This document shows positions 15,533 through 15,654 of a stretch of 54,037 nucleotides of DNA, one piece after another. The stretch's first letter is position 1. Each line of letters begins with the position of its first letter. This stretch comes from Squatina squatina (taxonomy: Eukaryota). The position numbers and the translations under genes were made by a program. The DNA lies in the NCBI GenBank assembly GCA_031763465.1, contig JARFOE010000192.1, forward strand, positions 14,855,458 through 14,909,494. The letters are read 5' to 3'. The notes under the pieces are model-generated. The model saw nothing but the letters and a program-made list of their open reading frames with translations, was not told where the DNA came from and searched no databases.

Positions 15533-15654
15533 TCACTAAAGAAGTGAAACCATGCAAATGTTATCAAGCTGAAAGAAGTTATAAGAGAAAATGACCATCT
15601 TTACTTTGTTTTTGAATACATGAAAGAAAACCTGTATCAGCTAATGAAAGACAG
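15533..15654 (+). CDS. MAK: MAK kinase-domain exon (122 bp) with an in-frame TGA at 15545-15547
   Basis: ttttacag|TCA CTA AAG AAG TGA AAC CAT...GAC AG|gtaact gives [40 protein letters not shown]. Not in the ORF track. Confidence 0.93.

Follow-up and report, generated by a model that had tools for sequence, protein, structure and literature searches.

The question raised by this locus is whether the stop codon that interrupts a conserved kinase exon of MAK in the assembly is present in the animal's genome. Coding exons were located by mapping database proteins onto the window, that is, the whole stretch of 54,037 nucleotides analysed, which yielded the following features:

645..770, plus strand: upstream exon of an ELO-family elongase, on the same strand as MAK (family-level match, scores below 0.9)
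12035..12135, plus strand: first coding exon of MAK, 101 nt, residues 1-34, intact, with a GT donor (tblastn, 100% to Chiloscyllium MAK)
15533..15654, plus strand: MAK exon for residues 53-93, 122 nt, carrying the stop, AG and GT sites intact (protein comparison)
15545..15547, plus strand: TGA at codon 57, with T at 15546 in relatives (translation, relatives' contigs, homologues)
16558..16657, no strand: 100-N gap into which the canonical 80-nt exon (residues 94-120), absent from the window, is tentatively placed
16679..16761, plus strand: alternative 83-nt MAK exon (GLVFVH), open frame, AG and GT sites intact (annotated isoforms)
16929..17061, plus strand: MAK exon for residues 120-164, 133 nt, with the catalytic loop, DFG and TDY motif, intact (protein mapping, splice sites)

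The first-pass annotation had named the gene MAK, and this identity was upheld against the paralogue CILK1/ICK, which has the exon structure of MAK. Over 116 scored residues, the window differed from shark MAK proteins at 1-2 positions versus 7-9 for shark ICK-type proteins, and the stop at codon 57 was the sole difference from the MAK of Chiloscyllium, Heterodontus and Cetorhinus across the three exons scored. The exon at 16929-17061 was identical to shark MAK, including the catalytic loop, DFG and the TDY activation motif, and all the splice sites present at the locus were canonical. In the tree, the window sequence was placed within the MAK group with a support of 93/93, just below the starred level of the tool, and a second locus (C4 plus the unplaced contig C303265) grouped with the ICK of Heptranchias and Pristiophorus (87/84). 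The closest named proteins were those of Heptranchias, which makes a squalomorph shark the probable source. The MAK exons of Heptranchias perlo (XP_067857845.1) and Chiloscyllium punctatum (XP_072416870.1) are identical or nearly so at the protein level to those of the window, which differs from them in its TGA at codon 57 and in having several exons in gaps or on unplaced contigs. In contrast, CILK1/ICK has its own locus on C4 and C303265, and the matching ICK exon of this genome (L002) reads TTA at the codon in question. By these comparisons, the gene in the window is identified as MAK and not as CILK1/ICK.

As a side observation, the database proteins named "MAK" from Pristiophorus, Mustelus and Scyliorhinus fell with ICK in the tree; therefore, the names given to shark MAK and ICK proteins are unreliable.

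Mak is described as part of a Mak-Gcm2-Sycp2l-Elovl2 block, with Gcm2 retained near Mak in all the jawed vertebrates examined in that report (PMC13489515), and the paralogous ICK block is described as having the same layout (PMC4746653). The ELO exon upstream fits an Elovl2-Gcm2-Mak block but, as the ICK block is laid out alike, synteny alone does not decide between MAK and ICK. The elongase exon, which we take to belong to ELOVL2, lies only around 11 kb from MAK (770-12035), with no GCM match between them. The single GCM locus that a search of the genome recovered lies beside ICK, and none was seen close to the window; synteny searches with Tmemb_14 and FBO_C returned no match and were uninformative. 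Gcm2 and Sycp2l, expected between the elongase and MAK, probably fell into gaps.

The lesion itself was confirmed in the assembly sequence as first described: the 122-nt exon has canonical AG and GT ends and carries, on the plus strand, a TGA in frame at MAK codon 57, 168 nt from the start codon. The Leu that had been claimed for MAK and CILK1 at this codon was found in 120/120 listed homologues, and in a second set of 60 proteins it was present in 50, the other 10 lacking coverage of the site. The placement within a contig, at about 0.9-1 kb from the nearest gaps, was also correct, as the exon lies on a gap-free piece of 1881 bases with 100-N gaps at 870 and 1012 bases. This location counts against a consensus error, as the TGA is in the middle of the piece and not at a ragged end.

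Of 21 public sequencing runs listed, the best contained 10% of the sequence words and none was a run of this organism; no RNA run was listed. Contigs from related organisms were compared over 15300-15900; at around 89% identity, these organisms are not close relatives. The orthologous contigs of three of them (runs X1, X6 and X10) all had T at 15546, which gives TTA (Leu), whereas the window has G, so that a single T>G change is enough to produce the TGA. The stop was thus shared by 0/3 of the orthologous contigs covering 15546; the fourth related run yielded the ICK exon only. In the comparison with run X1, the rows listed showed no exon difference other than the stop base, against 30 in the roughly 248 bases of flank, and the stop base would be the sole change to the exon relative to that organism. 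The exon was also seemingly without synonymous differences from X1 among the rows listed, with flanks that differ by about 12%; splicing signals beside the alternative exon pair may account for this.

If the stop is real, the first-pass annotation was right that the protein would be truncated before the catalytic loop, unless splicing bypassed the TGA or it were recoded by readthrough, selenocysteine insertion or A-to-I editing to Trp. Such a rescue, in whose favour only the intact surroundings speak, is scarcely credible: Leu is invariant at codon 57, with TTA in the relatives, the predicted RNA fold around the exon was ordinary (z = -0.18), and the context of the TGA is, we assume, not the usual readthrough motif. 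Skipping exon 15533-15654 produces a frameshift, and the in-frame alternatives (use of an AG at 15568 or 15640, or the skipping of two exons) shorten the N-lobe by 12, 36 or 59 residues. Splice rescue was ruled out, as every in-frame option costs N-lobe residues.

The headline of the first-pass annotation was a recent gene loss, and part of its case was that downstream exons deviate at normally conserved sites. Both deviations turned out to be normal shark sequence. The KIGDFG motif is present in the MAK of 8/10 named cartilaginous-fish genera, with Ala only in Pristis and Callorhinchus, and was therefore rejected as a sign of decay. A Gly before DFG is usual in shark and ray MAK and is also found in sturgeon and bichir MAK, whereas shark ICK keeps the Ala.

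GLVFVH, in turn, belongs to the 83-nt alternative exon, which is used in four of the five annotated MAK isoforms of Heptranchias perlo, the fifth having the canonical 80-nt exon in its place; the proposal of a decayed canonical exon was rejected on this ground. The 83-nt exon of the window differs from that of Heptranchias in 1/27 residues, and at this position it has the paddlefish residue. In annotated isoforms, the 83-nt exon takes the place of the 80-nt one not only in Heptranchias but also in paddlefish, sturgeon, several teleosts and the frog Ascaphus, and in none of the amniote proteins examined. From this distribution, the 83-nt and 80-nt exons look like an old mutually exclusive pair. 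No description of this alternative MAK exon was found in the literature searched, which includes few subscription journals. That a shark shares an alternative kinase-domain exon of MAK with sturgeons, teleosts and a frog is a firmer result than the stop itself.

No other mark of gene loss was found: the three exons, the splice sites and two 3' MAK exon pieces held no further lesion. The other 115 scored codons showed no amino-acid change relative to Chiloscyllium, Heterodontus and Cetorhinus; therefore, any period of relaxed selection would correspond to at most about 1.2% substitutions per site, compared with flanks that differ by about 12%. A loss fixed in this lineage, with ICK taking over the control of photoreceptor-cilium transport, would thus have to be very recent. 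The position of the stop before the catalytic loop fits such a loss, as no splice rescue keeps the kinase, and so does the grouping of the sequences with squalomorph sharks, a group with many deep-water species. Against it, the stop is not shared by relatives (T at 15546 in 3/3), full-length MAK is annotated across all three branches of cartilaginous fishes, and exon 1 of rhodopsin is open in this genome. We consider a fixed loss very improbable, and the headline is unsupported, given the two normal motifs, the lack of a second lesion and the presence of lone stops elsewhere in the assembly.

Missing exons bear on the same point. The small exon for residues 35-52 was not found in the window, and the canonical 80-nt exon likely falls in the gap at 16558..16657 or in another gap; gaps are the most likely cause of both absences. 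Searches of 184 kb around the window and of the whole genome did not recover the MAK exons for residues 165-277, only those of ICK being detected. This absence would also fit a deletion, which counts against a consensus error and counts a little in favour of a fixed loss. However, absences are common in this assembly, in which the exon for residues 120-164 is missing from ICK and GCM was found only beside ICK. With 1,152,659 contigs in the assembly and a window made of 42 gap-separated pieces (median 1096 bases), missing MAK exons are to be expected. A deletion of the 3' half of MAK was unsupported, as two 3' exon pieces with open frames are present on the unplaced contigs C646348 and C513936. 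In the first of these (L035, C646348:1-141), around 29 residues match Heptranchias and are followed by unrelated sequence near the contig end, probably a contig-end artefact.

As a control for the background of stops, the same genome was searched for two families with long conserved exons, the 7tm_1 GPCRs and the cadherins. Stops were found inside 11 of the 150 7tm_1 matches listed (31,016 codons) and inside 2 of 149 cadherin matches (an estimated 13,600 codons or so), and all 13 stop-bearing matches were retrieved, translated and inspected. Lone stops in otherwise open frames numbered 5 in about 44,600 GPCR and cadherin codons. One was in a TAAR-like receptor and adjoins a gap; the others were the following:

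L049, C115:24957972-24959351: CHRM3, TAA at a Leu kept in 12/12 cartilaginous fishes
L052, C53208:604-1335: GPR55-like receptor
L075, C1:4207921-4208190, and L076, C46:329720-330001: two cadherins

The names GPR55-like, TAAR-like, Dachsous-like cadherin and clustered protocadherin are those that we assume for four of these genes. The eight GPCR rows (of 11) that were not counted comprised one TAAR-like copy with several lesions, which is a probable true pseudogene, one frameshift, one insert, three breaks that run into unrelated sequence, one chimeric junction and one intron edge. The frameshift is in HTR1A (L050, C1:15776410) and the insert, of junk sequence with a stop, is in ADRA1A (L051, C1105293:35-595); in L053, L056, L058 and L059, GPCR frames either give way to unrelated sequence or are chimeric at a junction. 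The frameshift, the insert and the broken or chimeric frames are signs of misjoins. In a CDKL5 kinase exon, TAG occupies the position of a human Gln (L063, C194:9572305-9572439). The rate was computed without CDKL5 and MAK, and kinase matches whose stops fall at exon edges were put aside.

Pooled over both families, lone stops occur once in about 8,900 codons; leaving out the TAAR-like and protocadherin-like genes, which belong to pseudogene-prone families, lowers this to once in about 14,900. The control mixes errors with real alleles and true pseudogenes, and its counts are small. Extrapolated to 10 million codons, this gives about 700-1100 lone stops, with wide 95% limits of about 140-2600. 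At the rate of the GPCR set, a gene of 600 codons would have a lone stop 4-6% of the time, so that the TGA of the window is not more than chance for this assembly. A human genome is reported to carry about 115 nonsense plus splice genotypes, 23 of them homozygous (PMC4950961). The load of the shark draft is roughly ten times higher, which suggests that most of its lone stops are errors, although the diversity of sharks may be above that of human. The lone stops in CHRM3, CDKL5, the two cadherins and the GPR55-like receptor are likely assembly errors.

False gene losses of this kind have been described in short-read assemblies, with missing exons, coding Ns, fragmented genes and premature stops as here, and 26-60% of the genes of older assemblies are reported to be affected (PMC9516821). 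That report differs in that premature stops are given as among the least frequent types and were checked with reads, whereas the present stop is known from assembled sequence.

The same class of lesion is thus present in several unrelated conserved genes of one gappy draft, and for this reason the stop in MAK is most likely a sequence error. In the mechanism that we propose, the assembly would derive from thin short-read coverage, most of the lone stops of the control would be errors of it, and the stop at MAK codon 57 would be one among them. The G at 15546 would then be a consensus error of a fragmented draft and the stop would be absent from the animal's genome, a reading to which we give a probability of about 80%, as an estimate from indirect evidence. 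In that case, MAK is likely functional in this animal.

Consensus error and segregating allele had both been listed as options in the first-pass annotation; the former is now preferred and the latter appears unlikely, though it ranks ahead of the other alternatives. It would consist of a heterozygous null allele, L57X, picked by the haploid consensus, with a transcript likely degraded or translated into a stub of 56 residues. A single T>G change suffices for it, the codon lies mid-piece, no further lesion is needed, and healthy vertebrate genomes are reported to carry about 100 loss-of-function genotypes (PMC4950961). A carrier would see normally, as MAK disease is recessive. Against such an allele, the assembly has lone stops at roughly ten times the load of a human genome, and null alleles should be rare, given that loss of MAK is reported as lethal in zebrafish (PMC11273301). 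No second allele or haplotig of the exon was found in the assembly, where the only other match was that of ICK; the lack of a TTA copy would be neutral if the alleles were collapsed.

The zebrafish mutant pday (mak R70stop) offers the closest parallel to the change as assembled. Its larvae are described as having no outer segments and as blind, with nearly all of them dead by 10 days (PMC11273301). Both changes are nonsense mutations, that of pday being in exon 4, the residue numbers fall within the same exon and most of the kinase domain is removed. The parallel ends there, as pday is a laboratory mutant whose change has been verified and whose homozygotes are blind and die, and the shark change comes from assembly sequence only. 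In mouse, Mak and Ick are reported to act together, and delivery of Ick eases the degeneration of Mak-null animals (PMC11412320), so that a loss of MAK might to some extent be tolerated, which counts for a fixed loss. A squalomorph shark that retains rhodopsin, has just lost MAK by one fixed nonsense change and runs its photoreceptor cilia on ICK alone is, even so, a very doubtful proposition. If it were true, this animal would be a sighted vertebrate in which a retinitis pigmentosa gene has been knocked out naturally. It would also be a test of the lifelong replacement of MAK by ICK, which is relevant to treating MAK retinitis pigmentosa by activating ICK (PMC11412320).

As an error, the stop is a warning only: with lone stops at about one per 9,000-15,000 codons in the controls, calls of gene loss made from this assembly need reads. 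The stops in CHRM3, CDKL5, the cadherins and the GPR55-like receptor could likewise pass for gene losses elsewhere in the genome. No report of MAK loss in sharks was found in the literature searched, nor was any paper found on MAK and retinitis pigmentosa inactivating mutations in subterranean animals; among the titles listed on loss of phototransduction genes in sharks, none concerned MAK.

The vision genes covered were one rhodopsin exon, that mentioned above, and parts of RBP3. The assembled pieces of exon 1 of RBP3, which lies on C16, were open over 388 and 157 residues. Besides this gene, a second RBP3-like gene was observed, with an open frame of 332 residues (L071, C412333:326-1321).
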